Of a DNA stretch of 32,000 nucleotides, positions 3,363 to 29,340 are shown piece after piece. Both the position numbers and the translations under genes were made by a program. This stretch comes from Heliobacterium mobile (lineage in GTDB: Bacteria; Bacillota; Desulfitobacteriia; Heliobacteriales; Heliobacteriaceae): the NCBI RefSeq assembly GCF_009720735.1, contig NZ_WNKU01000006.1, forward strand, positions 123,809-155,808, read 5' to 3'. The notes below the pieces were generated by a model. It saw only the letters and a program-made list of their open reading frames with translations, searched no databases and was not told where the DNA came from. The first letter of the stretch is position 1. The number at the start of each line of letters is the position of its first letter.

Positions 3363-3568
3363 TAGAAAAGTGCTTTGATTATCAACAAAACAAGAATGAT
3401 ACCTCCAAAGAGAACACTCGCCGATATCAATCCGTCATTTTCCCAGGCCCGCTGCTGCTTTTCCGCCTTTCGAAGGACCGATCCCAGTATCATTTGGGCC
3501 TTTTTGGCTTCCTCGTCCCAATTAGGAGGTTTCGGCTCCTTTACTCGATATTTCTCGAGAAAAGACAT
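3362..3568 (-). CDS. small tail-anchored membrane protein, hypothetical
   Basis: 68 aa with AAGGTGA upstream of the ATG. It has a charged N-terminal half and a single C-terminal hydrophobic helix (ISASVLFGGIILVLLIIKALF). Confidence 0.5.
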   Translation of the reverse strand: MSFLEKYRVKEPKPPNWDEEAKKAQMILGSVLRKAEKQQRAWENDGLISASVLFGGIILVLLIIKALF

Positions 3569-3730
3569 TTTTCATCACCTTAAAGGCAATCTACTGCCAA
3601 TCGTAGGATTAAGACAAAATCTATACTGCGGGTGAAGGGATAGATTCACATTCAACCTTGTCAGAAATAACCGAAAGGCGAAGAGATCCTGTGGACCTCA
3701 TCGCCTTTCATGCAAAAAAATATAATATGA

Positions 3731-8768: not shown

Positions 8769-10544
8769 GTGGCCAAATACATCCGTTATATCGGCATCGA
8801 TTTCGGTACAAACAACACCGTACTATGCTGGCGATTGTACAATACAGAAACCAAAGAATGGGGACAAATCCATACCTTGAATGAAGGCACCTCCTCTACC
8901 ATCCCGTCCTTAATCTATGTCTCCGGAAATGGTGAACCTCTCTTCGGCGAAAAAGTGGCCTCTCGGATCAGTTACTACAAAAGTATGGGGGACAAGGGGA
9001 CCTTATATAACCGCTTCAAGATGGACATCCCCAGTGAAGACGAGAAAAAGCGGAAAGCCGCCTTCGATGCATCCGTAACTTTTTTGAAGTATCTTTACGA
9101 TCGTTATAAACAGCAACCGATCGATGCTCTTCCCAAAGAGGTAAAACCGTCCGATATTGAAGAGCAAACCTATGTGAGTTACCCCACCCGTTGGCCTCAG
9201 TTTGCCCGGCGCCTTACGGAAGAGGCAGTGTCAGCGGCTGGATTCAAAAATGTCAATATCGATCATAAATGTACCGAAGAGCCTTATGCAGCCTTTCGGT
9301 ATCTCCTGTTGCATTCGAATGAACAAGTCTCTCAGCTTGAAGCGAAAGGCATCCTCATCCATGGAAGACCGGTCTTTGTGCTCGTGGTCGATATGGGGGC
9401 AGGCACGACGGACGTGTCCTTAATTCGATTCGTACCGGGAGACGCCGAGGATAAGCGAAACGAAGTCCTGTTAAACTACCCATCGCCATCGAATGATGCT
9501 GAAGCCAAAAAATGGACCTTCGGCGGTGGCGATATCGACAACGCCTTAATGGATTTGTTGAAAAACTTCCTCGTCAGCGACGCCAAAGAAGTGTTGAGCT
9601 CCTACGCGGAATGGTCGGAGGAACCTGTAGACAAGCTTTTGCAAGATCTGCTCTACCCTTTGAACATTCGAAGTTGGAAAGAAGAGAGCGTCAACTCGGT
9701 CCTGTCCGACAACAAAACCTGCACCACCTTCCCCAGCTCGTTTCATGGAATGCTAGCCAAAAAACTCCCTCCCTTGCGCCTTGACCGCACGACCTATGCC
9801 AAATACTGCGGCGATGGAATGAACCGCTTTTGCCATATCGTCAACGGTGCCGTCCAAAAAGCCATGGAACTCAAGCAGATCCCCAATGCCGAAGCCATCG
9901 ATCTCGTCGTATTGACCGGCGGTCATAGCAAGAGTTGGTTTGTTCGCGATTTGCTTTGTGGCAAAACCCTCCCGGGCACATCGACGACGATCGAACTGCC
10001 GAAGATCAAAAGAGAGCCAAACCGGATCATGCAGTGGAAGATCCCAGAGGAAACCGTCGCCCGTGGCCTTTGCACCTTATTGGAGTCGAAACCTTTTCGC
10101 CACCGCCTCACCCATTCCGTTTGGATTCGGGTCCAAGAAAAGTATTATGAACAATTCAAAGTGTCCAACTGCTCTGGCTGGAAGTGCCTCATCGATCACC
10201 GGGCAAGCGATATCATCCTTCCCGTGAAAAAGACAGCAACCCTCAATTTCACCGTCGAAAATCATCCCAAATACGATAACCTGCACTTTAATGTGGAGGT
10301 AGCCGTTGGCGAAACCCTCGATGAAGCCGTGAAAAAATCTTACCTCGCCGTCGTAGACCAATCGGTCGTGGCCAACCTCGTTGTCGACGTCATGTTACTA
10401 GGTACACGATGGTTGACGGATATCAGCGCCGACTACAGGATGGACAATACGATTCTGATCAAAGAAGACCTGTCCATCGACTGGAATTATGAACTGTCAG
10501 GCTATGGCGAACATGGCAATGGGAAAATCGAGTTGAAACCCTAA
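8769..10544 (+). CDS. non-canonical Hsp70/actin-fold ATPase (DnaK-like NBD plus beta-sandwich, no helical lid)
   Basis: IGIDFGTNNT (phosphate-1), VLVVDMGAGTTDVSL (phosphate-2) and DLVVLTGGHSKS (adenosine motif) are in Hsp70 order. The C-terminal beta-rich ~170 aa resembles SBD-beta. The GTG start lies 7 codons before IGIDFGT. Confidence 0.8.
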   Translation: MAKYIRYIGIDFGTNNTVLCWRLYNTETKEWGQIHTLNEGTSSTIPSLIYVSGNGEPLFGEKVASRISYYKSMGDKGTLYNRFKMDIPSEDEKKRKAAFDASVTFLKYLYDRYKQQPIDALPKEVKPSDIEEQTYVSYPTRWPQFARRLTEEAVSAAGFKNVNIDHKCTEEPYAAFRYLLLHSNEQVSQLEAKGILIHGRPVFVLVVDMGAGTTDVSLIRFVPGDAEDKRNEVLLNYPSPSNDAEAKKWTFGGGDIDNALMDLLKNFLVSDAKEVLSSYAEWSEEPVDKLLQDLLYPLNIRSWKEESVNSVLSDNKTCTTFPSSFHGMLAKKLPPLRLDRTTYAKYCGDGMNRFCHIVNGAVQKAMELKQIPNAEAIDLVVLTGGHSKSWFVRDLLCGKTLPGTSTTIELPKIKREPNRIMQWKIPEETVARGLCTLLESKPFRHRLTHSVWIRVQEKYYEQFKVSNCSGWKCLIDHRASDIILPVKKTATLNFTVENHPKYDNLHFNVEVAVGETLDEAVKKSYLAVVDQSVVANLVVDVMLLGTRWLTDISADYRMDNTILIKEDLSIDWNYELSGYGEHGNGKIELKP

Positions 10545-10568
10545 TGTGCAGATGGGCGGTGAACGATA

Positions 10569-13154
10569 GTGAAAATTTCAAAGCAAAGCAGTCAAGAGTT
10601 CAAAAAGCTGAGCCGGCCGATTGAAAAAAACTATGAACTACATATCCTTCCGGAAGAATCACAATGGAAAAACATCGTCAACTATGTGCTTGAACGGGCC
10701 TATTTGCAAGAACTCTCGTCGACAGAACAGTTTCCCGACGAAGCTGCCTTTGAGCAGAACCGGCAATTTTCTTGGATGCAAATCATTCGCATCCCTACAT
10801 CCCCTTCTGACGCACCCCATCCGTCCATTCAAGCACAATGGCAAAGTGTACTCAGTGCCTGCCACTGCTGGGGGAGCCGCTTTGTCTTTTTGCTGATTCG
10901 TCTGCAGGGAAAAACCTACCTTTGTCTAGGAAGCTGCAACTTAACAGGCAAGCTTTCCACCGAAGACGCGATACAGCAGCTCTGCCAAGCCGTTACCAGC
11001 CAGTTGGCAGGTTGTGAGATCAAGAAAATGAGCGAAGCAGAAGTCTATCGTACGATCGTAAGGCCGCTCGGCCGTTTCCCTGTTTTAGGCTGCGTTACTG
11101 GGATTCCATCCAAACGAAAAAATGTCTATGATTCTGATTTTGTTCAAACCTTAGATAAAGTTGCCTTCGGCCTGCGGGAACAAGATTTCGAAACGGACTA
11201 CGCCGTCGCCATAATCGCCGACCCGGTAAACGACGCGGAAATTGCCGAGATCATCGCCAACTATCGCGATTTTAGTTCCTCCGTCCATCAATGGGTCAAG
11301 CGAACGTCCACGACCAGCCAAGGCCAAGCCAAAGGGGAAAGCGTCAATGTCGGCGCATCGATCGGCTCCGGTAATCTCATTCCCGTCGATGTCAATGCCA
11401 GCGTAGGCTATGCCCGCTACAACGTCGATATCAACTCCCAATCGGTGGGCACCGAACTGGTCGATAAGATGGCCAAATATACAGAAGAACTAGTCGATAA
11501 ACACATTCAGCGGTTGCAGCAAGGCCGTAATCTCGGTTTCTGGAATGTGAGCGTCCATGTTCATGGCAACGACTACGCCACTACCCAAACCATCCTTGGG
11601 CTGCTCCGTTCCATATACTCCGGCGATGAATCCTATATTGAACCGATTCGGTTACACATCCTCCCCCCCGGCACAGGAGCGGCCACCTATGCCAAAGCAT
11701 TCAGCCATATTCCCCTGTCGAGCACGTTAAATCGACCCAAAAGCTCCTCCTGGGAAAATCCGCTCGGCCGCATCCTCGGCATGGCTTCCACCCCGATGAA
11801 TACAGAAGAACTGTCCATCGCCTCCAGCCTTCCACGCAAAGACGTTCCGGGCCTTCGCTTCGTCCGCAATGCCGTACGTTTTGCCACCAATCCGCCCATG
11901 CTCAAAGATAAAAACGCACCAACCATGAAGCTCGGCCGGATTATGGACACAGGCATCCGCCTATCGAGCCAATATACCTTCAACATCCATTCACTCACAC
12001 GGCATGCCTTTGTCACCGGCATCACCGGCAGCGGGAAATCGACTACCTGCCAGCAGATCCTCCGCGAAGTCGTCACATCGACAGAGGCACCCGTGTTCAT
12101 TCTCGAACCGGCGAAAGAGGAATATGTCAAGTGGGCACATGAAATGAATGAATCGTTGCCTCCGGAAAAGCAATTTTTCATTTATATGCCCGGAAACTTC
12201 GTCGATTCCAACCATTATAAAAAACTGCGGCTCAACCCTTTTGCCCCTGCCGTGGAAAAAGGGGCGACTGCCGATCATTATGGTCGCTGCGAACGACTAT
12301 CGACGATCTTCTCCACCAGTCTACCCATGGATGGAATTCTCCCTTACATTTTTGAAGAAGCCCTTTTTGAAACGATGCGGATCGCCTTAGCCGATGAAAG
12401 GTGCCCCGACCACGGCGTATGCCCCAGCTTACAGGAATATCCCACCCTTGAGGAAGTTCGAGAGATTGCCCTTTGCTTGCTTGCCACGCGAGGATATACG
12501 AGCGATTTTACAGACCAGTTGAAAGCAGCCATCACGACGCGGATTAACGCACTACAGCGGGGCTTTAAAAAAGACCTCTTCGGCTGCACAGCATCGACGC
12601 CCCCGACCGAACTCTTTGGCCGAAATGTGGTCATCAATTTGAGTCGACTCGCCAATGAAAAAGATCGGGCTTTGGTCATGTCTTTATTGTTAACGAACCT
12701 GTTTGAATACAGAAATGCGAAATATCAGCATGATTCGGCCTATCGCAGTAAAGCGAATGAAGGTGAATTATGTCATCTAGCGGTCATTGAAGAAGCCCAC
12801 AGGATTCTGAGAAATCCCCAGATGGATTTCAATAATACCGGAAATCCCCAGTCGGCCTTAGCCTCTCTTTTCAGCGAAATGTTGACGGAAATGCGCAGTT
12901 ATGGGCAAGGCGTGATGGTCGTCGACCAAGTCCCGTCCGATCTCATTCCGAACGTCATGAAAAATACCAATTTAAAAATCGTCCATCGCTTAGTTTCCCG
13001 CGACGACTGTGAAGCGGTAACCGCATCGATGAGCCTCAAAGAAGAACAAAAGGATATCATTGGCCTTCTGCCGATCGGCGAAGCCATCGTCTGCGGTGCT
13101 TTCGATGATGCAGCGGCCTGGGTGGAAGTAGATGGCGGGGGGACAAGACGATGA
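10569..13154 (+). CDS. FtsK/HerA-superfamily (DUF87-like) P-loop NTPase with large unassigned N-terminal region
   Basis: 861 aa. Walker A is GITGSGKST (about 12019-12045). Walker B is LAVIEEAH (about 12776-12800), followed by VVDQVPSDL and KIVHRL. The preceding MNTEELSIASSLPRKDVPGL segment is typical of HerA/VirB4-like ATPases. I could not assign the first ~480 aa. Confidence 0.75.
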   Translation: MKISKQSSQEFKKLSRPIEKNYELHILPEESQWKNIVNYVLERAYLQELSSTEQFPDEAAFEQNRQFSWMQIIRIPTSPSDAPHPSIQAQWQSVLSACHCWGSRFVFLLIRLQGKTYLCLGSCNLTGKLSTEDAIQQLCQAVTSQLAGCEIKKMSEAEVYRTIVRPLGRFPVLGCVTGIPSKRKNVYDSDFVQTLDKVAFGLREQDFETDYAVAIIADPVNDAEIAEIIANYRDFSSSVHQWVKRTSTTSQGQAKGESVNVGASIGSGNLIPVDVNASVGYARYNVDINSQSVGTELVDKMAKYTEELVDKHIQRLQQGRNLGFWNVSVHVHGNDYATTQTILGLLRSIYSGDESYIEPIRLHILPPGTGAATYAKAFSHIPLSSTLNRPKSSSWENPLGRILGMASTPMNTEELSIASSLPRKDVPGLRFVRNAVRFATNPPMLKDKNAPTMKLGRIMDTGIRLSSQYTFNIHSLTRHAFVTGITGSGKSTTCQQILREVVTSTEAPVFILEPAKEEYVKWAHEMNESLPPEKQFFIYMPGNFVDSNHYKKLRLNPFAPAVEKGATADHYGRCERLSTIFSTSLPMDGILPYIFEEALFETMRIALADERCPDHGVCPSLQEYPTLEEVREIALCLLATRGYTSDFTDQLKAAITTRINALQRGFKKDLFGCTASTPPTELFGRNVVINLSRLANEKDRALVMSLLLTNLFEYRNAKYQHDSAYRSKANEGELCHLAVIEEAHRILRNPQMDFNNTGNPQSALASLFSEMLTEMRSYGQGVMVVDQVPSDLIPNVMKNTNLKIVHRLVSRDDCEAVTASMSLKEEQKDIIGLLPIGEAIVCGAFDDAAAWVEVDGGGTRR

Positions 13155-17861: not shown

Positions 17862-17902
17862 CAAAAACAAAGCACCAACGACATGCACGTCATTGGTGCT
17901 TT
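17862..17902 (-). terminator. intrinsic terminator closing the intron-like RNA region
   Basis: On the minus strand, aaagcaccaatgacg-tgca-tgtcgttggtgcttt forms a perfect 15-bp stem followed by gtttttg. Confidence 0.75.
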
Positions 17903-18263
17903 ACGATATCCCTCAAAACTACACAGAGAGGAAAATTTGATTTGATTCCGCTACGGACGTCTCCCGGGTTGTACCGGCGCTAAAGCGCCGACGCCTAAGG
18001 TCGCCCAGTCCCGCTGCATCAAATCATTTTTTCTGGACAAAAGTTTTGCGCATGGTTAAGGTAAAGTCCTCGACCGATTCGTACCCGTCGACTGAACGCC
18101 TCACGGCGTGTACATCTCGGGCCGATCGACCAGGTCATCTTCCAGGGGTCTTACCTCTTTCGAGGAACCTCGCGATGAATACCCTTTCCCTTGGCTAACG
18201 GTTGGTACAGCCAACCTCCGTTCTGGACTTTCACCCTAGAGTTATTGCCCATTCCAAGCGCAC
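17903..18263 (-). mobile_element. group II intron-like RNA (class C-like domain I), ORF-less and probably truncated
   Basis: The minus strand starts GUGCGC one nt after the T6 run of the upstream terminator. CUCUAGGGUGAAAGUCCAGAAC, then a hairpin, then GUUAGCC parallels what I recall of Oceanobacillus iheyensis group IIC intron domain I (UAUAGGGUGAGAGUCCCGAAC, hairpin, GUUAGCC). GGUGAAAGUCC can pair with the downstream GGACUUUACC. I found no reverse transcriptase ORF and no convincing domain V. Confidence 0.45.
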
Positions 18264-18264: not shown

Positions 18265-18300
18265 AAAAAAGAGCCGCCAGGTTTTACACCTGACGGCTAC
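18265..18300 (-). terminator. intrinsic terminator of the SLOG-TM/RyR operon
   Basis: On the minus strand, agccgtcagg-tgtaaaa-cctggcggct forms a 10-bp stem (one G-U pair) followed by tttttt, 8 nt after the RyR gene stop. Confidence 0.85.
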
Positions 18301-18308: not shown

Positions 18309-18599
18309 TCATTCGTCAACTTTTACAATCCGATATCCAAGCGCTACAATCGCCTTCAACGTCTGCATCGCCGCATTTCGATCATAGTCTTTTTCCGACT
18401 CTGGTAATTCTTCGTATGCAATTAGACAGGGATGAAGTTTCTTTTGGTCGTCACGCTGTTCACCGTATTGCCAGCCATCCTTGAACCGCTGTGTGGCCCA
18501 AACATCATGGGCATGTTTTGACAGCAACTCGGTTAATTTCAGGATTTCATTCGTCAGTTGTACTTTCGACGTGTCCATCGGCTTTGGAATATAAGTCAT
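18309..18599 (-). CDS. stand-alone RyR (ryanodine-receptor repeat) domain protein
   Basis: 96 aa with AAGGAG as RBS. HDVWATQRFKDGWQYGEQRDDQKKLHPCLIAYEELPESEKDYDRNAAMQTLKAIVALGYRI matches the bacterial RyR-domain consensus as I recall it. Confidence 0.8.
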   Translation of the reverse strand: MTYIPKPMDTSKVQLTNEILKLTELLSKHAHDVWATQRFKDGWQYGEQRDDQKKLHPCLIAYEELPESEKDYDRNAAMQTLKAIVALGYRIVKVDE

Positions 18600-18689: not shown

Positions 18690-20465
18690 TTACGCCCGGC
18701 GGACTTGTAGAGGCCGAGCCCGGTGCAGGTGAACCCAGTCACCGTTTTCAGCCAAGGCTTCTTTCCCTAGTTCTAGGACGAGTCCTTGAGCCGCTGAATA
18801 ATCGGAGGCGACTAGACAACGGCTCATTTCTGTGGCGGCCCGCTGAAAGATTTCACTCATTACCTCGTACTGCTTGGACTGATCTGAGAGTGCTGATTTT
18901 TCCGCGTAGCCCTCAAATGTAGCCGCGATGGCCGGAGTAAACCCCATGAATACGATCAGCAAGTGATGTAGATCGACTCCAAAGGCATGTTTGAAGTCTT
19001 CATATAAGTGATGCATATAGGGGTCGAGTGCAACAACGATGACCGATAAAGCGAGGCCGCCTACAAAAAAAATCTCAATCCACCGATCGAACCCTTCCAA
19101 TTTATGACGATCCCGCTTTGACGCTTTTTCAAAGAAATTGCATTGGTTCTGGATCCAATGGGTATTCAGTAATTCAAGTAATTTTCTCTCTTTCGATGTA
19201 GAAAGGGCATCCCTCTCCATCGTCATCTGCTGGTTGCCATCAGCGCACCCGGCAGCAATGTTGGCGAATCGAATGGCATTTCGAAGCCAAAGCAGTTCGT
19301 TTCGCTGTTTTCGAAGGTAGTGGTCAGCCACTTCATTGTCTAAACCTGCCAGATGCCAGAAAAACTGAATCCGCAATCCCTCCGCGAGGGCACGATAATC
19401 CAGATGTTTGTTCTGGTAGTTTTTCGAGTTAGCCCGACGGTAGATAAGATAGGCGATAAAAAGTGTGAGTGGGTATAGTCCCAGCATAAGCCGGGATTCC
19501 AGGAACATATGAGCATACAACTCAAAAAATAAAACGGCGGCTAAACCAAGAGCGAACAACTGTCCAATGGCACTACGGCGAATATCAGCAAAATGGATAG
19601 CCATCATATCGGATAAGGCGTAGTGATCTAACAATGATCGTGCCCTATCGGTTAGGACACTCTCCTCTTTGCCAGGCCAGAGCCATTCGCGACTTTGGCA
19701 GATGGCTTCGCTTTTTTTGGGGATTAGTTCTACGGCATCTGCGTTATACGCCTCGATCTGTTCAAATATCCGTCGTTCCGAATTCGCCGACGCTGCTCCT
19801 TTCTTCCCATCGCCGGGAAAAAGAGTAACCAACTGAAAAGGCTTCCCTTTAGGGGTTGGATTGCTATCCCGAGGCGTAACGATGTGGTACACCATCCCTG
19901 TATCAATAGGATCGAGCAAGTTCCGTGGAGGGGCATATGGCTCACCGATGCCTTGGCACTTGAACCGGACGACATGAGCGGATCCTCCGATGCGTCCGTT
20001 ATCTACACCATCCCAAAGAGCGATCAAGATATGGCTATGGCGAACGATGTAGGCCCCAATACGGGCGTAGCGTAGCGCGTCACTGTTCGGCTCGCCTTCC
20101 CTAACAGATAAAGGAATAGAAACAACTCTGTCCGCTTTTTTGACCAGTTCCAGATACTCGGCCCGTGACGACTCCGTGTCCGTTTCGGTAACATTGGCTT
20201 CCCCCTCTTCTAAAAGGGGGACTATTAATCGGCATCCGCAATCTAAGGCAACTTGAGCGACTAATCGGTCTGCTCCTTCCGCTAGCGGCGAAAGAAGGAC
20301 AACTGGTGTATGGGGATAGCTCGATCGCAGATCATTAAAGATTTTTCGTACCTGCTCTTCCAGTGACAAACGGTCGCCATTTCGCAGGTCCCGATGACCC
20401 GTCACACCAATAACAATAGGGATCAAAGGTTCGTTCCTGTCGTAAGTGCCCGTTGCTTTAATCAC
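18690..20465 (-). CDS. SLOG-like (YpsA/LOG/DprA-type Rossmannoid) domain fused to four TM helices (SLATT-like 2TM pairs)
   Basis: GAAGGAGG lies 7 nt upstream of GTG 20465; the track start at 20519 has no RBS. The N-terminal motifs are IVIGVTGHRDL, LSPLAEGADRLVAQVAL and ILIALWDG..GGSAHVV. There are two TM hairpins: LFALGLAAVLFFELY with LGLYPLTLFIAYLIY, and IFFVGGLALSVIVVAL with LLIVFMGFTPAIAATF. Confidence 0.6.
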   Translation of the reverse strand: MIKATGTYDRNEPLIPIVIGVTGHRDLRNGDRLSLEEQVRKIFNDLRSSYPHTPVVLLSPLAEGADRLVAQVALDCGCRLIVPLLEEGEANVTETDTESSRAEYLELVKKADRVVSIPLSVREGEPNSDALRYARIGAYIVRHSHILIALWDGVDNGRIGGSAHVVRFKCQGIGEPYAPPRNLLDPIDTGMVYHIVTPRDSNPTPKGKPFQLVTLFPGDGKKGAASANSERRIFEQIEAYNADAVELIPKKSEAICQSREWLWPGKEESVLTDRARSLLDHYALSDMMAIHFADIRRSAIGQLFALGLAAVLFFELYAHMFLESRLMLGLYPLTLFIAYLIYRRANSKNYQNKHLDYRALAEGLRIQFFWHLAGLDNEVADHYLRKQRNELLWLRNAIRFANIAAGCADGNQQMTMERDALSTSKERKLLELLNTHWIQNQCNFFEKASKRDRHKLEGFDRWIEIFFVGGLALSVIVVALDPYMHHLYEDFKHAFGVDLHHLLIVFMGFTPAIAATFEGYAEKSALSDQSKQYEVMSEIFQRAATEMSRCLVASDYSAAQGLVLELGKEALAENGDWVHLHRARPLQVRRA

Positions 20466-20583
20466 TGATTGGCCTCCTTCAGTGAAACATAGGGGTAGTA
20501 CAATATTTATGTACACCATTCTTTATTTCTTTGAACATTCCTTCAAAAGCAAGCCTATTTTTAGCATACTTACCTAAATAGAA

Positions 20584-22833
20584 CTAAATCGGCTGAAAGA
20601 GGATACCTAGTCGTCCTTTTACCTCTGAAATCGTTACACTGACTATATCGAAACGGTCTATACCGGCCGAACGCAGACATTGAACATTAACCGATCGTTC
20701 TTCCGGTGTCGCTTGAATAGCCGACAACAGGTCTTCATCATTTGTAACAGCTTTGCCATCATAACCGATGATGATGTCGTTTACCCGGATGCCGCTCTTT
20801 TCCGCGATTCCACCTTCGACGAGCTCTGAAACAAAAATTCCTCCGTCCACACCCAGCGTCTCGATTTGAGCCGTAAAGAGTTCCGATGCTTTGATGTAGG
20901 GCTTAAAGTCATCGGAAACCATTTGCTCGCATCGGGACAGTGCACCTAGAGACTCATAGATACGTCCTTCTCGCCTAAGCAGATAAGCTTTTCGCAGAAT
21001 CCCGTCGAACCGATCGGTAGGGCGAACTATTAAGGCATCAAAATCAATCGGTTCAGAAGGATTTTGATAGGGCATAGAGGTAATTAAGTGTTTCAATCGG
21101 GGCAAGTCGGGATGGTTTATGTTCCTAGAGACAAAAAAGTTTAGTGTCTCCAAGGCAATGCCGCCGAAATACTCGTCTTCGAAGTATTTGGTACCGCCGT
21201 CTGCCGAAAGGGTCAATAACCGTTTTACCTTCCGGTCCTTATGTTTAATAAAGATGTCTTTCGCCAAATCGAATTGGTTTGTAAAGAGGTACGCCACACC
21301 GAGATTTAAAATAGCTACATCTTCCTCTGGATTGGCGTCAAAAGCTAATTGTGCCGCATGAAGAGCCTGCGAGGGGTCTCCATCGAGCAAAAAGAAGGTT
21401 GTCGCCGAAACATACAATTGACCGATGTTTTCGTAGTCACCGATCGCCTTAAAGTTTTCTTCACTCTTGATTAGCGCTTCACGGGCCTCTGAAATATGGT
21501 CAATGGCCATATAGGCTTCACCCAATTGCCGGTACAGAATGCCGTTTAGCTGCCTAACTTGAGCTCGGACAGGAGGGTCCTCTGCATCTGCCAGCCCCCC
21601 CAAGAGATCGATGCTGTTTTGAAAGCATTCGACCGATTTATTCAACTCGTTCAGGTGAAGCCATCGTTCCCCCAAACGTTCGTAATTCGCCACCCGTTCC
21701 AATTTGGCGATTATATCGTCTTCATTACGGTCAATGAGTTGATCTAATGTCTTTATATTGGCATCCAAGATTTCGGTGACGATGGGACTTACTTGAGGAA
21801 AGCGACGTAGCCGATCAGGAATGTCAAAAGTCAACTGGTTAATCCGGTCCAAAGCTAGATTCTTTTGAAATTCTGCCCTTTCCTTCTCACTGTCAGCGAT
21901 AGACTTCTGCAAAAGTGCTTCTACTTTTTGCTCGTCCGCCAGGATGCGGGAGGCCTGCTCTTTTTCTCGAGCTTCTTCAGCGGTCAACCTAGCCTCCTTT
22001 TCCTTCCCTTCTGCATCTTCAGCATGCTTACGCATAAGCATTTCCTGAAGCTTGGCCCGTTCACTCTCCGAAAGTGCTTGTTCCGCCATCATACGGGCTT
22101 CCCGCTCATTTTCTCGGGCCTTTTCCGCCTCAATCCGAAGATTGTCCGTGTATTGCCACTGCCGATAACTGTACAATCCGAAAAGCAATAAAAGGGCCAT
22201 AACGGAAGCCGCAGTAATTTCCCACTGCCGGATTTGCCGCTCTCGGTGCCGCTGTTTCAAGTCGTCAAAGGTGCAACCAATAATGGGCGCTATCAGGCGA
22301 AGCTTTTCTGTCTTCAGCAGGGCCATTGATTTTCGAAAACTTGTAGCCCTAATATCGGCGGCCAGCGGTTCAATTTCTACGGAAGTACGGTTGACAGCAC
22401 CATTATCGTCGATAAAGGTCCGTTCGATGTTACAAAGTTGCTTAGGAAAGGATTCTGCAGGTTCTCCCTCAATAAGCAAGGCAAGAATTTGTTTTTCCCG
22501 GCCCAATTCCATAAAGATTTGAATCTCCCTGGCGATCCAATCTGATTGGGGCGTTCGCGGGGAGCAGATAACGATCAAAAACCTGGATTGATGCAAGGCC
22601 TCCCGGATGCTGTCACTGAGGTTGTTCGTTGTGGGGAGTTCATCACGGTCTCGGAAAACCCGCTCAAGCCGTCTCGGCACCCCCTTTTCTACTAGTATTC
22701 GGGGAACTTTATACGTTTCAAGAGCGGTATGCAGCTGTTCGGCGATTCTCTTATCTGGCTGGGTGTGCCGATAACTTATGAACGCGTCATAGCGAAAATC
22801 GATGATTTCTCGCAATCCCTTCCCCTCCCCCAT
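20584..22833 (-). CDS. TIR - single TM - coiled coil - TPR-like - PDZ protein
   Basis: The TIR signature is YDAFISYRH...FLIVICSPRTPQSDWIAREIQIF...LLIEGEP. A basic KQRHRERQIRQW stretch precedes the TM ITAASVMALLLLFGLYSY. An E/K/R-rich coiled coil and helical repeats follow. The C-terminal region is PDZ-like (GIFVSELVEGGIAEKSGIRVNDIIIGYDGKAV). The start is uncertain: ATG 22833 has a weak RBS. Confidence 0.85.
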   Translation of the reverse strand: MGEGKGLREIIDFRYDAFISYRHTQPDKRIAEQLHTALETYKVPRILVEKGVPRRLERVFRDRDELPTTNNLSDSIREALHQSRFLIVICSPRTPQSDWIAREIQIFMELGREKQILALLIEGEPAESFPKQLCNIERTFIDDNGAVNRTSVEIEPLAADIRATSFRKSMALLKTEKLRLIAPIIGCTFDDLKQRHRERQIRQWEITAASVMALLLLFGLYSYRQWQYTDNLRIEAEKARENEREARMMAEQALSESERAKLQEMLMRKHAEDAEGKEKEARLTAEEAREKEQASRILADEQKVEALLQKSIADSEKERAEFQKNLALDRINQLTFDIPDRLRRFPQVSPIVTEILDANIKTLDQLIDRNEDDIIAKLERVANYERLGERWLHLNELNKSVECFQNSIDLLGGLADAEDPPVRAQVRQLNGILYRQLGEAYMAIDHISEAREALIKSEENFKAIGDYENIGQLYVSATTFFLLDGDPSQALHAAQLAFDANPEEDVAILNLGVAYLFTNQFDLAKDIFIKHKDRKVKRLLTLSADGGTKYFEDEYFGGIALETLNFFVSRNINHPDLPRLKHLITSMPYQNPSEPIDFDALIVRPTDRFDGILRKAYLLRREGRIYESLGALSRCEQMVSDDFKPYIKASELFTAQIETLGVDGGIFVSELVEGGIAEKSGIRVNDIIIGYDGKAVTNDEDLLSAIQATPEERSVNVQCLRSAGIDRFDIVSVTISEVKGRLGILFQPI

Positions 22834-22974
22834 AAGCCCGTTAACGAATAATCAATAACCTCTTCTTTATACATATGTAACTTTATATTTATACCTATAG
22901 GAGGATATTTTTTACTTCCAGCGAATAATTCCTGCAAGATCAAGCTGGAATTTATGAAATTGGAGGGAGCGCCT

Positions 22975-23922
22975 GTGAAACAAAAACAGTTGGTTGGACT
23001 ACGTTCGACTGAGTACGAACACCCCTTTGATCGGAACGCGCTGGAAGCACTAAGAGGAACACCTGGGTTGGAAACGATCGTAAAAAAGTTCAACCATTAT
23101 GGTATCGAAAAACTTTTGAAAATCCGCTATACCGGCAGCAATATTAAGGTAGATGATCGTAACTATCCCGAACTCTATGATACGTTACGGCAAGTCTGCG
23201 CCATTATCGATCTGCCCGAAATACCCGATCTGTACATCCAGTGGGGGTACGAGATCAACGCCTTTACAGCCGGTGTGGAAAAACCGATCATCGTGCTGAA
23301 TTCAAGCTGTATTGATTTTTTGTCCAAAGAAGAGTTGATGTTCATCATCGGCCACGAGGCCGGCCACATCAAGAGCCAGCATGTCCTATACCATCAAATC
23401 GCTGAGGTCTTACCAATTATGGGCGACATCATAGGCAATGCCACTCTTGGCATTGGAAGCCTAATTTCTACCGGTGCCGAGATCGCCTTGTTGAACTGGC
23501 AGCGTATGTCCGAATTTACCGCCGACCGGGCCGGCCTGCTAGCTTGCCAGGATGCCAACATAGCTACCAAAGCCATGGTCAAGCTGGCCGGTGTACCGCA
23601 AAAATATTTCAACTCTATCAATGTTGAGGAATTCATTGCTCAGGCGAAAGAGTTTGAAGGCTATGACTATGATACGCTAGACAAGATCGTCAAGCTGATG
23701 AGCACGATGTGGATGAGCCACCCCTGGACGGTCATGCGCGGCGCCGAGTTTTTCAAGTGGATCGATACGGGCGAGTATGACCGTTTACTCAGTGCTAATC
23801 GGCTAGAAAACCTTATCGGAAACAGTAATGCGAGTGGTACCGGTAAAATGGCCTGCCCGAACTGCGGCGCAACCCTGAAAGGTGTTGAAAAGTTCTGTCC
23901 CTATTGTGGGAATAAGATATAA
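22975..23922 (+). CDS. M48-family zinc metallopeptidase with C-terminal zinc ribbon
   Basis: It has HEAGH (HExxH) and a downstream EFTADR third ligand. The C-terminus is CPNCGATLKGVEKFCPYCGNKI. GGAGGGAG lies 5 nt upstream of in-frame GTG 22975; the track ATG is at 22954. Confidence 0.8.
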   Translation: MKQKQLVGLRSTEYEHPFDRNALEALRGTPGLETIVKKFNHYGIEKLLKIRYTGSNIKVDDRNYPELYDTLRQVCAIIDLPEIPDLYIQWGYEINAFTAGVEKPIIVLNSSCIDFLSKEELMFIIGHEAGHIKSQHVLYHQIAEVLPIMGDIIGNATLGIGSLISTGAEIALLNWQRMSEFTADRAGLLACQDANIATKAMVKLAGVPQKYFNSINVEEFIAQAKEFEGYDYDTLDKIVKLMSTMWMSHPWTVMRGAEFFKWIDTGEYDRLLSANRLENLIGNSNASGTGKMACPNCGATLKGVEKFCPYCGNKI

Positions 23923-24042: not shown

Positions 24043-24501
24043 TTATTCAAACCGAGTCCCACAGTTTGGGCAAAACTTCCCCTCTCTACGTTCTTCACCA
24101 CAGTTTTGACAGAAACGGGTTGCCTTTTGGCCTATACCCTTTTGCAAAGCAGAGAATAGATCCTCCACTGCTTTATGGCAAAAACCTCCTCCCATAGCTT
24201 GAAAGGAAAGTAGCAGTCGAATCGACAAATTCACCTCGGAACAATTTCCCTGCGGCATCACCTTGGCATCCAACCTGTACGACGTAGTGGAATCGCTCAG
24301 TGCATTGAACATCTTTAAGGCGTTTTTGTATATTGCATAGGCCTCAATCGTACCGTTCGCTGGGTTCTTCTTCTCTATCTGCCACCACATATTCATGCCC
24401 ACCAGTTGGAGTGGTGTCGTTTCGATCGTTTGGATCAATTGTTCAAAGGCTTGTTGTGGTGATTCGGGAAATTGGCGTTTCTCTTCGTAATGAGCGGACA
24501 T
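24043..24501 (-). CDS. hypothetical protein with C-terminal zinc ribbon
   Basis: AGGGAGGA lies 7 nt upstream of ATG 24501; the track start at 24627 has no RBS. 152 aa, ending CQNCGEERREGKFCPNCGTRFE. Confidence 0.7.
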   Translation of the reverse strand: MSAHYEEKRQFPESPQQAFEQLIQTIETTPLQLVGMNMWWQIEKKNPANGTIEAYAIYKNALKMFNALSDSTTSYRLDAKVMPQGNCSEVNLSIRLLLSFQAMGGGFCHKAVEDLFSALQKGIGQKATRFCQNCGEERREGKFCPNCGTRFE

Positions 24502-24712
24502 ATTAAATTCCTCCCTATTTGCTGCTATATTTTTATAGTATTTAGAACGCAGCGTACTTCTCAAGACAATCAATAGCAGAGCCAACGTCTTCCGCATAAT
24601 CAACAGCTCTATCATTGACGCGCACAATTATATATCTTTCGTCAAGTCTAGCCTCTACGGTTGATTAATTGCCTCTTGAGTTTTCCCTTCGAATCGAAAT
24701 GTTCTAGTTAGT

Positions 24713-25837
24713 TCAATGAGTTGCATTAAAATCTGATGTATTTTCATCAAAAGAAATTTGAGAAGATTTTATTTTCCAAAGTGTATTGGCATTCTCATTG
24801 ATTATTTTATCTATAATCGGTTTTGCTTCCGGTATATGCCCTAATCTAGCGGGTATTTCTTGCATTAGCCGGTCGCTTGCTTCTAAAGCCATTTCTTTCT
24901 GTTGCTCAGCCACCACTCTCTCCTTTTCTGCCAACAATGCTCCCTCACATGCTCGTTTTGCTTGTATATTGGCCATACTCCTCTGTTCTTCCGCCATTAG
25001 AGCCTGCTGCACAGTCACTTGACGCTGTCTCTCTACTTCCATTGTAGCAGCTTGAGCTTCATTTTCTCGAATTATTGCCTGATCTCTAGCTTTCTCTGCC
25101 TTTTCTTTTTTCTCTACTGCTTCTAACGTCGCATTCTCTGCTTCTAACCTTTTGCCTTCGGCGTAGCGGTACTGCATAATGCTTGCCGTTCCAAAAATAA
25201 ACAAGCACAAGATTGAACCTAGAGCAAGCATTGTAACGTTTTTTACGAATCTTTCTCTGTGTCTCTGCCGAAGATTATCAAAGGTACAGTTTAATAACTT
25301 AGCGAGAAGACGCAATTTCTCTTCTTTTAACATTTGCAATGATTCAGAAATGCTATTCGATTCGTTCGTAATGTTAGCAGCTAATGGCTCAGCAATTTCT
25401 AATCGTTCGTATTCCTGACCACCGATCCGCACCCAATGCCGACGATGCTCCCGAAGAAGATCAGGGAAGGATTCTTCTGGTTTTCCTTCCACAAGCAACG
25501 TCAGAATCCGGTTTGAACGACCCATTTCTCGAAATAATCGAATTTCCTCCTTCACTCGTCGATCCTTGGGGGTTGCTGGCGAGCAAACAACGATAAGAAA
25601 GTTCGCACACTTCAGTGCTTGAGAGATATCCAATGGAGCTATTTCTTTACTTTCATATCCCAAATATGCAGGCATATATACTTTCACTTTTTCCGATAAG
25701 CCTTGCTTCACCAAGGCATTGGGTACCCGGTACGAATTTAATGCGTTTACTAGATGATTTGCTATGGAAAGGTCCAGCCTTCGCTGACAACAGGTGATAA
25801 CCGCATCGTATCGAAGGTCCTTTTCTTCGGAGGTCAT
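24713..25837 (-). CDS. degenerate TIR-like domain - TM - coiled-coil protein
   Basis: AAAGGAGGAG serves as RBS. It is a paralogue of the two other TIR proteins (FLIVVCSPATP, ILTLLVEGKPEESFP, EKLRLLAKLLNCTFDNLRQRHRER). The N-terminal signature reads YDAVITCCQ instead of YDAFISYRH. The TM is VTMLALGSILCLFIFGTASIM. Confidence 0.75.
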   Translation of the reverse strand: MTSEEKDLRYDAVITCCQRRLDLSIANHLVNALNSYRVPNALVKQGLSEKVKVYMPAYLGYESKEIAPLDISQALKCANFLIVVCSPATPKDRRVKEEIRLFREMGRSNRILTLLVEGKPEESFPDLLREHRRHWVRIGGQEYERLEIAEPLAANITNESNSISESLQMLKEEKLRLLAKLLNCTFDNLRQRHRERFVKNVTMLALGSILCLFIFGTASIMQYRYAEGKRLEAENATLEAVEKKEKAEKARDQAIIRENEAQAATMEVERQRQVTVQQALMAEEQRSMANIQAKRACEGALLAEKERVVAEQQKEMALEASDRLMQEIPARLGHIPEAKPIIDKIINENANTLWKIKSSQISFDENTSDFNATH

Positions 25838-25858
25838 GATTCACTCCTCCTTTAAAAC

Positions 25859-26515
25859 CTATTGCTTGTTGAGATTATAGGTTTCTTGTAGTTTTCTCCA
25901 TTTTAGAAAAGCCTTGTTTGCACTTTCTAAGTCCCCTAGTTCACGGGATATTTCTTCCGTTTTTTTCCATACAATATGTAGAAATCGTTGTGCTTCGATA
26001 TTTGTGGTGTCCTTTGCCAGTTCTTCGGCAATAACTAGTTCTTTTTCGTACCATTTGCGTGCATCTAAAAACTCACCTTCAGCGTAAGTAAAATCGCCAT
26101 AACTTTCGTAGAGAATGGCTAGGTCCCTTAGCGCCTTTGCATTCGTTTGGTCCTTTGCCAGTTCTTCACGTATCGCAAGAGCCTTCTCATACCACCCTCG
26201 GGCTAGCGACAGGTCCCCTTGGGCTACCGACACTTTCCCTAGGTTATTGTAACTGATTGATAAGTCCCGTTGCGCCTCTGCATTCATTTGGTCTTTTGCC
26301 AGTTCTACCGAAATCGCAAGAGCCTTCTCATACCACCCTCGGGCTCCCGATAGGTCCTCTCTGGCTACCGCCACTTCTCCTAGTCTTTCGTAACTGATCA
26401 ATAAGTCCCTCTGTGCCTGCGTATTTGTCTGGTCTTTTGCCAGTTCTTCAGCAATCTCAAGAGCCTTCTCATACCATATCCGGGCTCCCCACAGGTCCCC
26501 TTGGGCTATCGCCAC
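25859..26515 (-). CDS. TPR-like 47-aa-repeat protein; in-frame continuation of the 26531-28516 ORF
   Basis: 218-aa ORF with a GTG start and no clear RBS. It begins in the middle of a repeat unit (AIAQGDLWGARIWYEKAL...) and carries about 4 more repeat units. Confidence 0.6.
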   Translation of the reverse strand: MAIAQGDLWGARIWYEKALEIAEELAKDQTNTQAQRDLLISYERLGEVAVAREDLSGARGWYEKALAISVELAKDQMNAEAQRDLSISYNNLGKVSVAQGDLSLARGWYEKALAIREELAKDQTNAKALRDLAILYESYGDFTYAEGEFLDARKWYEKELVIAEELAKDTTNIEAQRFLHIVWKKTEEISRELGDLESANKAFLKWRKLQETYNLNKQ

Positions 26516-27400
26516 AACACCTATTCTTTCTTAACTGATCGATAAGTCCCGCTGTGCCTGTGTATTTGTCCGGTCTTTCGCCAGTTCTTCAGCAATCGTA
26601 AGAGCCTTCTCATACCATATCCGGGCTCCCGAAAGGTCCCCTTGGGCTATCGCCACTTCTCCTAGTCTTTCGTAACAGAGCGATAAGTACCGCTGCGCCT
26701 CTGCATTCATCCGGTCTTTCGCCAGTTCTTCAGCAATCGTAAGAGCCTTCTCATACCATATCCGGGCTCCCGACAAGTCACCTTGGGCTACCGCCACTTC
26801 TCCTATGTTATTGTAACTGATTGATAAGCCCCGTTGCGCCTCTGCATTCGTTTGGTCTTTTGCCAGTTCTTCACGTATCGCAAGAGCCTTCTCATACCAT
26901 ATCCGGGCTCCCGACAGGTCCCCTTGGGCTACCGACACTTCCCCTAGTCTATCGTAACTGAACGATAAATCCCGCTGCGCCTGCGCATTCGTAAGGTCTT
27001 TTGACAGTTCTTCAGTTATCGCAAGAGCCTTCTCATACCATATCCGGGCTCCCGACAGGTCCCCTTGGGCTACCGACACTTCCCCTAGTCTATCGTAACT
27101 GATCGATAAGTTCCGCTGCGCCTGCTCATTCGTCCGATCTTTCGCCAGTTCTTCAGCAATCGCAAGAGCCTTCTCAAACCATATCCGGGCTCCCGGTAGG
27201 TCCCCTTGGGTTATCGCCACGTCCCCTAGTCTTTCGTAACTGACCGATAAATCCCGCTGCGCCTGCGCATTCGTCCGATCTTTTCCCAGTTCCTCATTTA
27301 TCACAAGACCCTTCTCAAATTCTGCTTTAGCCCTTACTACATCACCCAATATAATCCACGTGTCTCCCATACGCGAAAAGTTTACACTCTTTTCACGCAA
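25900..27400 (-). repeat. tandem 141-nt (47-codon) coding repeats, about 10 units
   Basis: The 52-nt string ccagttcttcagcaatcgtaagagccttctcataccatatccgggctcccga occurs at 26581 and again at 26722, exactly 141 nt apart. The same period is seen throughout. The boundaries are approximate. Confidence 0.8.
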
Positions 27401-28516
27401 CACTTTCGGGTCCGATAGCTCTCTGCCTACATCCATAATCCTATCCAGCATCCCTAAGTTTCCTGCCAGCACGTCCACCAAAATCGTTTTGGTACCTGCT
27501 ATGTTTTGAAGCTTATCAGGAACATCATAAGTTAAGCTACGGATAACTTGCATAGCAAGGTTTTTCTGCTCTACGCTCTGCTTGCGCCGTTCTTCGGCAA
27601 GGGCATATAGCTTTTCTGAGGTCGCCCGTTGCGACTCAGCATCCTGTTTAGCTTGCTCCGTTTCGTTTTTATATTTTTCCGCCTCTTGTTCCAGTCGACG
27701 CGCTTCTTCATAGCGTGCTTCAGACCAGCGCTGCATTTCTCCGGCTTTCTGATACTGCTCGACAGCAATCTGCTCCGCTTCTTGTGCTTCAGCTAATTTG
27801 ATTGTGGCGACTCGACTTGATTCTTCTGCCTGCCTTCGTAAATCGTTGCTGTAAAAACCATAGATTGTAGCTATGGTTAAGGCTGCCGTTAGGGCTAAGC
27901 CTCTCTGCCAATACAGTCGCTGTTGGTGATAGTGCCAAAGTTCTTCCTTCTGAACACCTGCCAGTAGTGTAATTAGTTCCAACTTCTGTTCTTTCAGGTT
28001 GTTCAAAATTTGGCTCGTATCTTTTCCACGCAGGTCGGTTACAGGTAGTTTCCACTTCCCGTTAATCGACTCTTTTAAATTGCTATCGTCTTCCCGTGCC
28101 GCCGACCCTTCAAGATGATCCAATAGCGCTAATAGAGGAAGCGGGAACGAATCCCTTGGTTCTCCTTCGATAATCACCGGCAAGATACGCTGGGCTCTCC
28201 CTAACTCAATAAAAGTTTCTATCTCCCTGGCCACCCATTCCGACTCGGGGGTGCTTCGGGAGCACAATACAATGAGAAATTGCGATTGAGAAAGAGCGTA
28301 CGCAATGTCATCGCTAAGGTTGCTGGAACTGGGTAGTTCTGCTAGGTCCAAAAATATCCGAGTTATCGGCCATGCTCCCTTTTTGACCAGTGCCGAAGGA
28401 ACTTTGTACGTCTCCAAAAGCCGGTGCAGGCGGGCTGCGATAATCTTATCTGGAAAGCCGTGGCGGTAACTGATAAATGCATTGTAATGATAATCACTTT
28501 TAGGATTAAAAGTCAC
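26531..28516 (-). CDS. TIR - TM - coiled coil - TPR-like 47-aa repeat protein (ends at a TAA inside a repeat)
   Basis: GGGGGGAG lies 5 nt upstream of GTG 28516. The TIR signature is YNAFISYRH...FLIVLCSRSTPESEWVAREIETF...IIEGEP. The TM is LALTAALTIATIYGFY, followed by an E/K/Q-rich coiled coil. About 6 repeats of ...AQRDLSxSYERLGEVAVAQGDLSGARIWYEKALAIAEELAKDxTN follow. Confidence 0.85.
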   Translation of the reverse strand: MTFNPKSDYHYNAFISYRHGFPDKIIAARLHRLLETYKVPSALVKKGAWPITRIFLDLAELPSSSNLSDDIAYALSQSQFLIVLCSRSTPESEWVAREIETFIELGRAQRILPVIIEGEPRDSFPLPLLALLDHLEGSAAREDDSNLKESINGKWKLPVTDLRGKDTSQILNNLKEQKLELITLLAGVQKEELWHYHQQRLYWQRGLALTAALTIATIYGFYSNDLRRQAEESSRVATIKLAEAQEAEQIAVEQYQKAGEMQRWSEARYEEARRLEQEAEKYKNETEQAKQDAESQRATSEKLYALAEERRKQSVEQKNLAMQVIRSLTYDVPDKLQNIAGTKTILVDVLAGNLGMLDRIMDVGRELSDPKVLREKSVNFSRMGDTWIILGDVVRAKAEFEKGLVINEELGKDRTNAQAQRDLSVSYERLGDVAITQGDLPGARIWFEKALAIAEELAKDRTNEQAQRNLSISYDRLGEVSVAQGDLSGARIWYEKALAITEELSKDLTNAQAQRDLSFSYDRLGEVSVAQGDLSGARIWYEKALAIREELAKDQTNAEAQRGLSISYNNIGEVAVAQGDLSGARIWYEKALTIAEELAKDRMNAEAQRYLSLCYERLGEVAIAQGDLSGARIWYEKALTIAEELAKDRTNTQAQRDLSIS

Positions 28517-29308: not shown

Positions 29309-29340
29309 TTTCCAAGGTTGAAGTAAAGGAGGAAGTGGCA

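Follow-up and report, generated by a model that had tools for sequence, protein, structure and literature searches.

Our subject is a protein encoded on the minus strand of a 32,000-nucleotide (nt) stretch of the Heliobacterium mobile genome (contig NZ_WNKU01000006.1, positions 123,809 to 155,808 of the forward strand; the whole of this stretch is called the window below, and coordinates are its own). We think it probable that this protein, in which a YpsA-like SLOG domain appears to stand in front of a ThsH-like SLATT membrane module, is the membrane effector and receptor, gated by a TIR-made signal, in a Thoeris-like system. In Thoeris-type immunity a TIR enzyme makes a messenger derived from ADP-ribose (ADPR) that is read by an effector, and the field is being mapped quickly. 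The protein does not open a new category, the general principle having been predicted since 2015 and close analogues having been validated; what sets it apart is the joining of a YpsA-like SLOG sensor to a ThsH-like effector, the large and often membrane-anchored TIR partners, and the presence of a host RyR (ryanodine receptor repeat) protein in some loci. The family appears to be a large branch of Thoeris-type immunity, with about 11,000 clusters at 50% identity, many phyla and tight TIR linkage, and in the protein the kind of sensor domain known from type I (SLOG) is joined to a type VII-like effector module.

The open reading frame (ORF) occupies 18690..20519 on the minus strand. An earlier note made from the letters alone had moved the start to a GTG at 20465, with GAAGGAGG 7 nt upstream, and this is borne out: the 591-amino-acid (aa) product of that start (GTG at 20465..20463) is identical to NCBI GJ688_07590 from Heliobacillus mobilis (100%, full length), and the GTG is to be preferred to the ATG at 20519 because homologue alignments open at about residue 11-15. 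Its name in UniRef is 'SMODS and SLOG-associating 2TM' protein, that is, a SLATT-domain protein. An AlphaFold2 model built from 53 family sequences (the protein and 52 aligned homologues) reached a mean predicted local distance difference test score (pLDDT) of 89.4 and a predicted template-modelling score (pTM) of 0.90, and the gene and its product divide as follows, TM standing for transmembrane helix.

20473..20480 (-): ribosome-binding site GAAGGAGG, read from the sequence, 7 nt 5' of the GTG start
18690..20465 (-): gene for the 591-aa SLOG and four-TM (DUF4231/SLATT, ThsH-like) protein, stop codon included; from NCBI identity and the AlphaFold2 model
19818..20423 (-): predicted SLOG (YpsA/DprA-like Rossmannoid) domain, residues ~15-216; from Foldseek against the PDB and BFVD, with invariant columns at the C-terminal ends of strands
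19566..19817 (-): helical connector, residues ~217-300, leading into TM1; AlphaFold2 secondary structure, pLDDT mostly >90
19434..19565 (-): first TM hairpin, TM1 ~301-321, 5-residue outer loop, TM2 ~325-344; hydropathy and AlphaFold2, the DUF4231/SLATT_3 region in homologues
19083..19433 (-): cytoplasmic helical insert, residues 345-461 (~117 aa); conserved columns and AlphaFold2
18915..19082 (-): second TM hairpin, TM3 ~462-481, 17-residue outer loop, TM4 ~499-517; hydropathy and AlphaFold2, the SLATT_1 region in homologues
18693..18914 (-): C-terminal cytoplasmic helical tail, residues 518-591 (helical over 518-582), with conserved ELGKEALxENGDWVxLHRxRP; alignment and AlphaFold2

As modelled, the protein begins with an alpha/beta domain that runs to about residue 216, continues through a helical connector (220-270) into a 47-residue helix that ends as TM1, and turns tightly into TM2; a helical cytoplasmic insert then leads to a 73-residue helix ending as TM3, a 17-residue loop, TM4 and two long C-terminal helices. 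The high pTM points to a single rigid unit made up of SLOG domain and helical bundle.

The N-terminal domain, judged from this model, belongs to the SLOG superfamily. Its best Foldseek match in the PDB is YpsA (2nx2, E 2.6e-4, template-modelling score 0.60 on the protein), followed by ShosA (8zva), DprA (3uqz), a Moco carrier protein (2iz7) and TM1055 (1rcu), all of them SLOG superfamily members, and among the viral models of BFVD the best matches are DprA-like, DUF2493 and YspA/cpYpsA-related SLOG proteins (E 7e-6 to 2e-5, template-modelling scores 0.6 to 0.8). Five loops are conserved across the 53 sequences: GVTGHR (20-25, with G23, H24 and R25 invariant), SPLAEGAD (59-66), WDG (151-153), GG(S/T) (160-162, GGS in our protein, columns G160, G161 and T162 nearly invariant) and TPR (197-199). 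In the model G23/H24/R25 come after strand 17-23, S59-D66 after strand 55-58, W151/D152/G153 after strand 146-151 and T197/P198/R199 after strand 191-196, and G160/G161/T162 open helix 162-171, so that the invariant residues gather at the C-terminal ends of the strands, the usual ligand face of a Rossmannoid fold, and would line a putative pocket. Pfam returned no SLOG-family match for the protein at E up to 1, and among the 53 members YAcAr was matched in 19, always below threshold (best E 0.0014; 14-17 bits, where listed, against a cut-off of 28.2). The earlier note had proposed a Rossmannoid SLOG-type N-terminus with GxTGHR and GG-S motifs, which the conserved motifs and the SLOG proteins returned by the structure searches uphold; its length of about 190 aa fell short of a core that reaches ~216, and the ~100-aa linker that it placed between SLOG domain and hairpins does occupy that place, as a run of confidently predicted helices (220-247, 252-262, 265-270 and then the helix ending in TM1) and not as an unstructured linker.

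Charged residues of the putative pocket are conserved, H24, R25, D31, D66 and D152 being invariant and E63 nearly so, in a superfamily whose clades have been published as both enzymes and sensors (PMC9503650, PMC6459960). The SLOG domain might then be an enzyme anchored to the membrane by its SLATT part, one that processes a nucleotide, for example by N-glycosidic cleavage as in LOG or by degrading or converting the TIR product, and in doing so makes or removes a signal. We rate this as quite unlikely, since PGGxGTxxE, the LOG-type motif that supplies the catalytic Glu, is missing from the 53-member alignment, which reads GGTAQIV, since the nearest folds are the non-catalytic YpsA and DprA types, since the fused module resembles one that acts as the effector in type VII Thoeris, and since the cluster already encodes a separate candidate signal degrader, the RyR protein.

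The C-terminal half carries four hydropathy peaks (Kyte-Doolittle, residues 303-321, 324-342, 462-480 and 499-517; means 1.4 to 2.4, maximum 2.36), and hydropathy and AlphaFold2 agree with the earlier note on four hydrophobic helices in two hairpins, a soluble insert (~110 aa there, ~117 aa here) and a helical tail. Two 2-TM hairpins with flanking cytoplasmic helices (301-344 and 462-517) make up a SLATT-type layout. The tip loops hold no (first hairpin) and one (second) Lys/Arg, the flanks on the opposite side 2 to 6, a positive-inside distribution that fits a topology with the N-terminus, the insert and the tail on the cytoplasmic side and the tips of the hairpins outside. The insert holds the most conserved motif of the family (NKHLDYRALAEGLRVQFFW ... 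HYLRKQRSELDWIR ... HWxxDQ), and K353, Y357, R358, A361, E362, G363, R365, W370, Y383, W393, W437 and Q441 are invariant within it across the 53 sequences. It is true that AlphaFold2 alone cannot separate a membrane helix from a buried one, and a soluble protein with buried hydrophobic helices and no membrane function is the case in which the earlier note said that its reading would fail; we regard it as extremely improbable when four segments of 19-21 residues, with Kyte-Doolittle means of up to 2.36, form two antiparallel hairpins projecting out of the cytoplasmic bundle, when the charges obey the positive-inside rule, and when the region matches Pfam families that are defined as 2-TM modules.

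Those Pfam matches come from the homologues. The protein's own sequence has no DUF4231 or SLATT_1-6 match, and among the 53 family members DUF4231 is found in 43, SLATT_3 in 19 and SLATT_1 in 12 (all sub-threshold). Some matches exceed the curated cut-off (among them DUF4231 in P0010, 28.3 bits against 24.7; SLATT_3 in P0111, 28.3 against 26.3), and the homologues that match DUF4231 or SLATT_3 are full-length relatives with 40-47% identity. SLATT_1 falls on the second hairpin, at residues 425-523 of P0104 and residues 1462-1559 of an ORF in locus L035 (family loci are numbered with L below). The profile and structure checks that the earlier note had called for thus gave SLOG by structure search and SLATT through the Pfam matches of homologues.

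A close parallel to the membrane module is found in type VII Thoeris, which pairs a TIR with the SLATT effector ThsH, has been validated against phage and uses canonical cyclic ADP-ribose (cADPR) as its signal, the ligand being proposed to bind between SLATT protomers (bioRxiv 10.64898/2025.12.03.692087). Starting from a type VII TIR of Table S1 of that study (bioRxiv 10.64898/2025.12.03.692087), we were led to plasmids of Neorhizobium, Rhizobium, Vibrio, Klebsiella, Morganella and Yersinia that carry TIR-DUF4231 pairs; these are called type VII here by their gene arrangement and by one adjacent TIR that is 62% identical to a type VII TIR of Table S1, not by comparison with ThsH itself. The DUF4231 proteins next to these TIRs are ~289 aa long and follow the plan of hairpin, ~110-aa insert, hairpin and helical tail. 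With hhalign, residues 282-559 of our protein align with residues 8-266 of six such 289-aa proteins over 235 colinear columns (probability 65.9%, E 5.7e-5), the C-terminal tail falling on the C-terminal helices of the ThsH-like proteins, and two motifs correspond, WY..RA..ES.K...W in the DUF4231 proteins to YQNKHLDYRALAEGLRVQFFW in our family and RI.DQ..WY.KKA to HWV.DQ..FF.KA; a hidden Markov model (HMM) of our family scored only 7.6 bits on a single ThsH-like sequence. Both hairpins, insert and tail would then be one pre-existing module, found by itself in the 289-aa DUF4231 proteins, and the profile alignment together with the Pfam matches supports the reading that our protein is a ThsH-like module to which a SLOG domain has been attached N-terminally. 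The two hairpins, compared with each other by hhalign, gave a probability of 7% over 27 columns with TM2 and TM4 in register, and a duplication was not shown by this comparison.

The family is large and widespread. A HMMER scan of 1.84 billion representatives returned 10,980 clusters (50% identity) at E<=1e-3 and 3,749 at E<=1e-30; the best 150 clusters are mostly 560-650 aa long and match nearly the whole profile, a minority being longer (up to 884 aa) or matching in two or three pieces. Species-representative genomes that carry a member come from Bacillota, Acidobacteriota, Ignavibacteriota, Pseudomonadota, Planctomycetota, Armatimonadota, Eremiobacterota, Chloroflexota and other phyla.

The family is closely tied to TIR genes. 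Iterative jackhmmer search with Pfam confirmation over 80 genome loci places a TIR gene no more than 6 kilobases (kb) from the family member in 46 of them, the 51 proteins concerned all proving to be Pfam TIR_2, and no more than 500 nt from it in 34. Beside the family gene there are 45 TIR genes per 100 kb, against 0.6-3.5 farther out, and of the 56 loci that reach 3 kb or more to each side 39 have a TIR gene. In a Gimesia sp. metagenome-assembled genome (MAG) the two are fused, a single ORF of 1604 aa (L035, 2905-7719) consisting of TIR (24-123), NB-ARC, many TPR repeats and the SLOG-SLATT protein. Across 54 partner TIR domains the catalytic Glu column is kept in 96%, Glu103 of the window partner among them, and the partner proteins are large (TIR-TPR, TIR-WD40, TIR-NB-ARC-TPR). 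In the window the family gene is flanked by a TIR gene and an RyR gene on the same strand.

20584..22833 (-): TIR749 gene, 749 aa, 118 nt upstream of the SLOG-SLATT gene; Pfam TIR_2 1.7e-11, ThsB_TIR 1.9e-11, PDZ_6 3.7e-10
18309..18599 (-): gene for a stand-alone RyR (R12-type, PF02026) protein, 96 aa, 90 nt downstream of the SLOG-SLATT gene; Pfam RyR 9.6e-35
18272..18298 (-): terminator-like hairpin, 11 pairs (7 G-C), then CTTTTTTGGT, 10 nt past the RyR stop codon

The 118-nt and 90-nt intergenic gaps hold no terminator-like hairpin, and the weaker hairpins listed for this strand from the TIR stop codon to that of the RyR gene all lie within the SLOG-SLATT coding sequence; from this arrangement the three genes are likely to form one transcription unit that ends at the strong hairpin past the RyR gene. 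TIR749 is presumably the signal-producing sensor. From an N-terminal TIR domain (~15-130) it continues through a single predicted TM (204-222) and a charged coiled coil to TPR repeats and, at the C-terminus, a PDZ domain (663-723), and the coiled coil, TPR and PDZ parts probably lie outside the membrane. The same order, an N-terminal TIR, then 35-70 residues, then one strongly hydrophobic helix, recurs in at least 16 partner TIRs of the genome loci and in both TM-bearing TIRs of the window, which suggests membrane-anchored TIR receptors with sensors possibly outside the cell. Loci with this layout are L015, L026, L028, L036, L039-L043, L055, L056, L064, L075 and L079, together with 20584..22833 and 24713..25837 in the window, and the sensor-like region after the helix is TPR, WD40 or PDZ; the partners in L052, L053, L072 and L077 have several TM helices followed by a C-terminal TIR.

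A rival reading is that the system is not directed against phage. It might serve envelope stress or conflict between cells, with a transmembrane TIR sensing an extracytoplasmic cue through TPR or PDZ and its product gating SLOG-SLATT and RyR channels to give an ion flux without killing. TIR749 with its one TM, its TIR-side flank richer in K/R and a PDZ domain most similar to those of extracytoplasmic DegP, DegS and HtrA would suit this, as would the recurrence of the TIR-then-TM order in the partners just counted, the K+-channel/TrkA_N/RyR proteins that recur beside family members, the size and taxonomic breadth of the family, and a gene set without GC anomaly in which the SLOG-SLATT gene and its two neighbours lack a meaningful PADLOC match. 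We nevertheless consider this role unlikely: every characterised TIR+SLATT, TIR+SLOG or TIR+Macro-TM pair is an abortive-infection defence, the TIR-NB-ARC-TPR and TIR-WD40 partners resemble immune pattern-recognition proteins, and the window packs three TIR genes into 8 kb, as is often so in defence islands. A broader idea, which we put forward only tentatively, is a transmembrane TIR pathway in which TIR749, in the style of a Toll-like receptor, reports an envelope event through a cADPR-type messenger that is read by SLOG-gated SLATT modules and by K+-channel/RCK-RyR proteins and is buffered or hydrolysed by the host's stand-alone RyR protein. If true, it would be a bacterial counterpart of the animal channels on which ADPR-type nucleotides act through SLOG-like (TRPM2) and RyR-repeat (ryanodine receptor) domains, and host RyR-domain proteins would be built-in regulators or sensors of TIR signals.

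The roles could also be reversed, the SLOG-SLATT protein being a membrane sensor or scaffold that responds to a nucleotide or to membrane perturbation and activates the TIR, which would be the effector by depleting NAD+. TIR domains serve CBASS, Pycsar, Avs and pAgo systems as NADase effectors, the TIR adjoining the L004 family member is a TIR-STING, a known effector architecture, and many partners are large STAND-type proteins. In those systems, however, the TIR is fused to a sensor of its own (STING, SAVED or STAND) and gets by without a SLOG partner, both the SLOG of ThsA and the SLATT of ThsH act downstream of the TIR, and an RyR protein makes most sense with a diffusible cADPR-type signal; we find the reversed order very improbable. 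Locus L004 itself (1015-4372, from a Pelotomaculum sp. MAG, 43% identity, among the closest genome homologues) encodes, in this order, a stand-alone RyR protein (99 aa), the TIR-STING (355 aa) and the SLOG-SLATT protein, and no cyclase is visible on its short contig; TIR-STING is normally a CBASS effector. In L001-L003 (7809-8144, neighbour of P0007) a 111-aa TIR gene lies 30 nt downstream of the family member, ends in ARVHRRHRARASTSSNCN and is without the conserved Glu; it looks truncated and may be a frameshifted or decayed partner gene.

The third gene of the unit gives the window a possible means of controlling the signal. The 96-aa RyR protein matches animal RyR repeats in the PDB and the Bacteroides (B. 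thetaiotaomicron) structure 3nrt at 1e-32. Phage proteins of the same family, PF02026, termed RyDEP, bind 2'cADPR and 3'cADPR, and the founding RyDEP cuts a ribose-ribose bond by means of H75 and D117, with ligand contacts from W78 and H100 (PMC13232231, a preprint of May 2026). The window protein has H31-x-x-W34, H56 and D73, in the spacing of RyDEP H75, W78, H100 and D117, an equivalence drawn from spacing and not from an alignment to the RyDEP sequence, and it is presumed to bind or hydrolyse an ADPR-type signal made by the TIR. It thus resembles RyDEP in family and in the pattern of His-x-x-Trp, His at +25 and Asp at +42, and differs in that RyDEP is a phage-encoded means of immune evasion, whereas the window gene is chromosomal and apparently co-transcribed with the TIR and the effector, which suggests a host regulatory or sensing role. 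A tblastn search with the 96-aa protein found 257 phage genome records, DyoEdafos not being among the 40 matches listed.

RyR domains occur in 8 of the 80 family loci, as stand-alone proteins (L004, L023), at the C-terminus of Ion_trans_2/TrkA_N proteins (L023, L054, L056) and on STAND-type proteins (L008, L035), the gene upstream of the fusion in L035 (47-2869) encoding a STAND NTPase with an RyR domain. TrkA_N proteins of 560-630 aa with a C-terminal RyR directly adjoin SLOG-SLATT members in L023 (4042-5850), L054 (7754-9433) and L056 (3495-5228); the L023 protein has an Ion_trans_2 (K+-channel model) match at its N-terminus, the others returned no channel-domain match, and L056 additionally has three TIR-TM genes. 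These TrkA_N-RyR proteins may be channel-type effectors that sense through their RyR domain.

Taken together, we picture the system as follows. TIR749, whose N-terminal TIR would be cytoplasmic and keeps its catalytic Glu, would sense a threat and make from NAD+ a signal derived from ADP-ribose, most plausibly one of the cADPR isomers; this signal would occupy the conserved pocket of the cytoplasmic YpsA-like SLOG domain, which is predicted to pack rigidly through the helical connector onto a ThsH-like four-helix module of two SLATT hairpins; binding would alter the cytoplasmic helical bundle such that the hairpins open or oligomerise, the membrane would be permeabilised or depolarised, and the infected cell would stop growing or die; and the 96-aa RyR protein, its gene apparently co-transcribed, would bind or hydrolyse the same signal and set a threshold or a reset. 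A ligand-gated membrane effector, which the earlier note had inferred from the fused domains, fits both the strong TIR linkage and the validated TIR+SLATT pair of type VII.

A number of observations weigh against this picture. The protein itself has nothing significant in Pfam, NCBIfam or PADLOC by hmmscan, and the link of its module to the ThsH-like proteins is a remote profile match (66% probability, 7.6 bits with the single sequence). The module modelled separately (pLDDT 92.4) has no Foldseek match in the PDB better than E 0.066, and because it lacks a significant structural match the word 'pore' rests on analogy; its weak top resemblances are to the ClyA-family alpha-pore-forming toxins SmhA, AhlC and NheA (template-modelling score ~0.22), which is suggestive in theme and is not evidence. 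The invariant His, Arg, Asp and Glu of the SLOG domain could serve catalysis instead of sensing. In 17 of the 56 loci that reach 3 kb or more to each side no TIR lies within 6 kb, and therefore some members may work without a TIR of their own; the TIR partners are large proteins, sensor-type or membrane-anchored, and not small ones like ThsB; and a TIR domain may also be an effector that depletes NAD+. The sequence profile of the 53 members, run against PDB sequences, gave a chance match only (a TIM chimera, E 0.38).

Further features of the window deserve mention. A second TIR cluster (24713..28516, minus strand) encodes a 374-aa one-TM TIR protein, a 218-aa TPR protein and a 661-aa TIR-TPR protein, its TIR domains being paralogues of that of TIR749, and beside it (30021..31901, plus strand) lies the gene for a 626-aa protein with two N-terminal TM helices, TrkA_N (RCK) and a C-terminal RyR; this could be another Thoeris-like system with a channel-like, RyR-bearing effector. 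Divergent from the TIR749 gene is an M48 metallopeptidase with a C-terminal zinc ribbon (22954..23922, plus strand), and two small membrane proteins, each with a terminal zinc ribbon, are encoded among the TIR genes (24043..24627, minus strand; 29335..29853, plus strand). The 611-nt gap between the RyR gene and a radical-SAM gene contains an isolated 95-nt match to the 3' end of 23S rRNA (18070..18164, minus strand; Rfam LSU_rRNA_bacteria 2817-2912 of 2925, 62.8 bits, E 1.8e-16), which may be a recombination scar or the remnant of an rRNA operon; the window has no tRNA genes, and a second long terminator-like hairpin lies at 17904..17867 (minus strand). Finally, the genes at 8769..13154 (plus strand) encode, in this order, a protein of 591 aa that shows a weak Hsp70/actin-like similarity (E 2e-4) and is unrelated to the SLOG-SLATT protein though equal in length, an 861-aa protein with a HerA/DUF87-type ATPase motif and a 210-aa protein without a match, and may be another conflict system.

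The family offers an experimental handle. The isolated SLOG domain is usable as a reagent to tell which TIR product gets read, and the compact membrane module could give the first structure of a SLATT effector, since the PDB has none. Furthermore, the side features may come to outweigh the protein itself, namely the many single-pass TIR partners whose sensor domains are probably outside the cell and the host-encoded RyR proteins, whose place inside the system points to host-side control of the signal and to RyR domains as sensors on channel proteins.

Several known systems share parts of this design. Burroughs et al. reportedly predicted SLOG-SLATT associations in 2015, the name SLATT being said to originate there, and set beside those associations our protein has a SLOG part that current Pfam models do not recognise. 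SLATT has since been described, in papers quoting the 2015 definition, as the 2-TM effector that goes with SMODS and SLOG, with a nucleotide-gated pore as its predicted form (PMC7159879, PMC9503650). The idea of a SLOG receptor that reads a TIR-made cADPR isomer and governs a fused killing domain is shared with ThsA (SIR2-SLOG) of type I Thoeris; the effector of ThsA, however, is a soluble SIR2 NADase and its SLOG is of the STALD type, whereas ours is closest to YpsA/DprA. SIR2_2 and STALD have no match in our protein and are not within the 25 most matched families of the 53 members, and in a true type I locus (L090) both are matched.

In the animal channel TRPM2 an N-terminal SLOG-like region (MHR1/2) binds ADPR and is fused to a TM channel. 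Our protein follows the same logic by analogy, with a SLOG-type domain on the cytoplasmic side fused to a module for membrane permeability, and it is as an analogy that the earlier note's comparison with TRPM channels stands; homology does not, there being no LSDAT or TRPM similarity, the membrane part included, for the LSDAT Pfam family has no match in the protein and is not within the 25 most matched families of the 53 members, and the only TRPM match by Foldseek is TRPM8 (E 0.069, probability 0.30, root-mean-square deviation 27.7). Type II Thoeris (Macro plus 2 TM) and the TM effectors of CBASS and Pycsar likewise fuse a cytoplasmic nucleotide-binding domain to TM helices and disrupt the membrane on signal binding; their sensors, unlike ours, are Macro, SAVED and cNMP-binding domains, and their TM modules differ too.

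Two candidates for identity with a described effector were rejected. The first is the SLOG effector of type III Thoeris (ThsD): locus L092, found through a TIR 91% identical to the type III 'TIR 2' of Table S1, has six TIR genes and is in our view a type III locus, and its SLOG protein is a 189-aa LD_cluster3 protein without TM helices, a family with no match in our protein and not within the 25 most matched families of the 53 members. The second is the candidate Thoeris effector listed in Table S2 as 'SLOG and 4TM', which gave no defence in E. coli (bioRxiv 10.64898/2025.12.03.692087). It has the same architecture in words, SLOG plus four TM, and the same TIR neighbourhood. A relative of it, L087:1949-3025 (359 aa), adjoins a TIR domain 60% identical to the Nitrospira nitrosa TIR of Table S1 and differs from our protein in having a LOG-like GGGNST SLOG and four contiguous C-terminal TM helices; tblastn found no match between this relative and our protein, and hhalign gave a probability of 0.35%.

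There remains type VII Thoeris. Its partner TIR is of the small ThsB type and its ThsH-like proteins are without SLOG, whereas here a 749-aa TIR-TM-TPR-PDZ protein is the partner, a SLOG domain and connector (216 aa of SLOG) are fused in front of the module, and a third gene, for RyR, is present; in both, a TIR gene adjoins a DUF4231/SLATT membrane protein, and the plan of the membrane module is shared, as are some motifs within a remote similarity.

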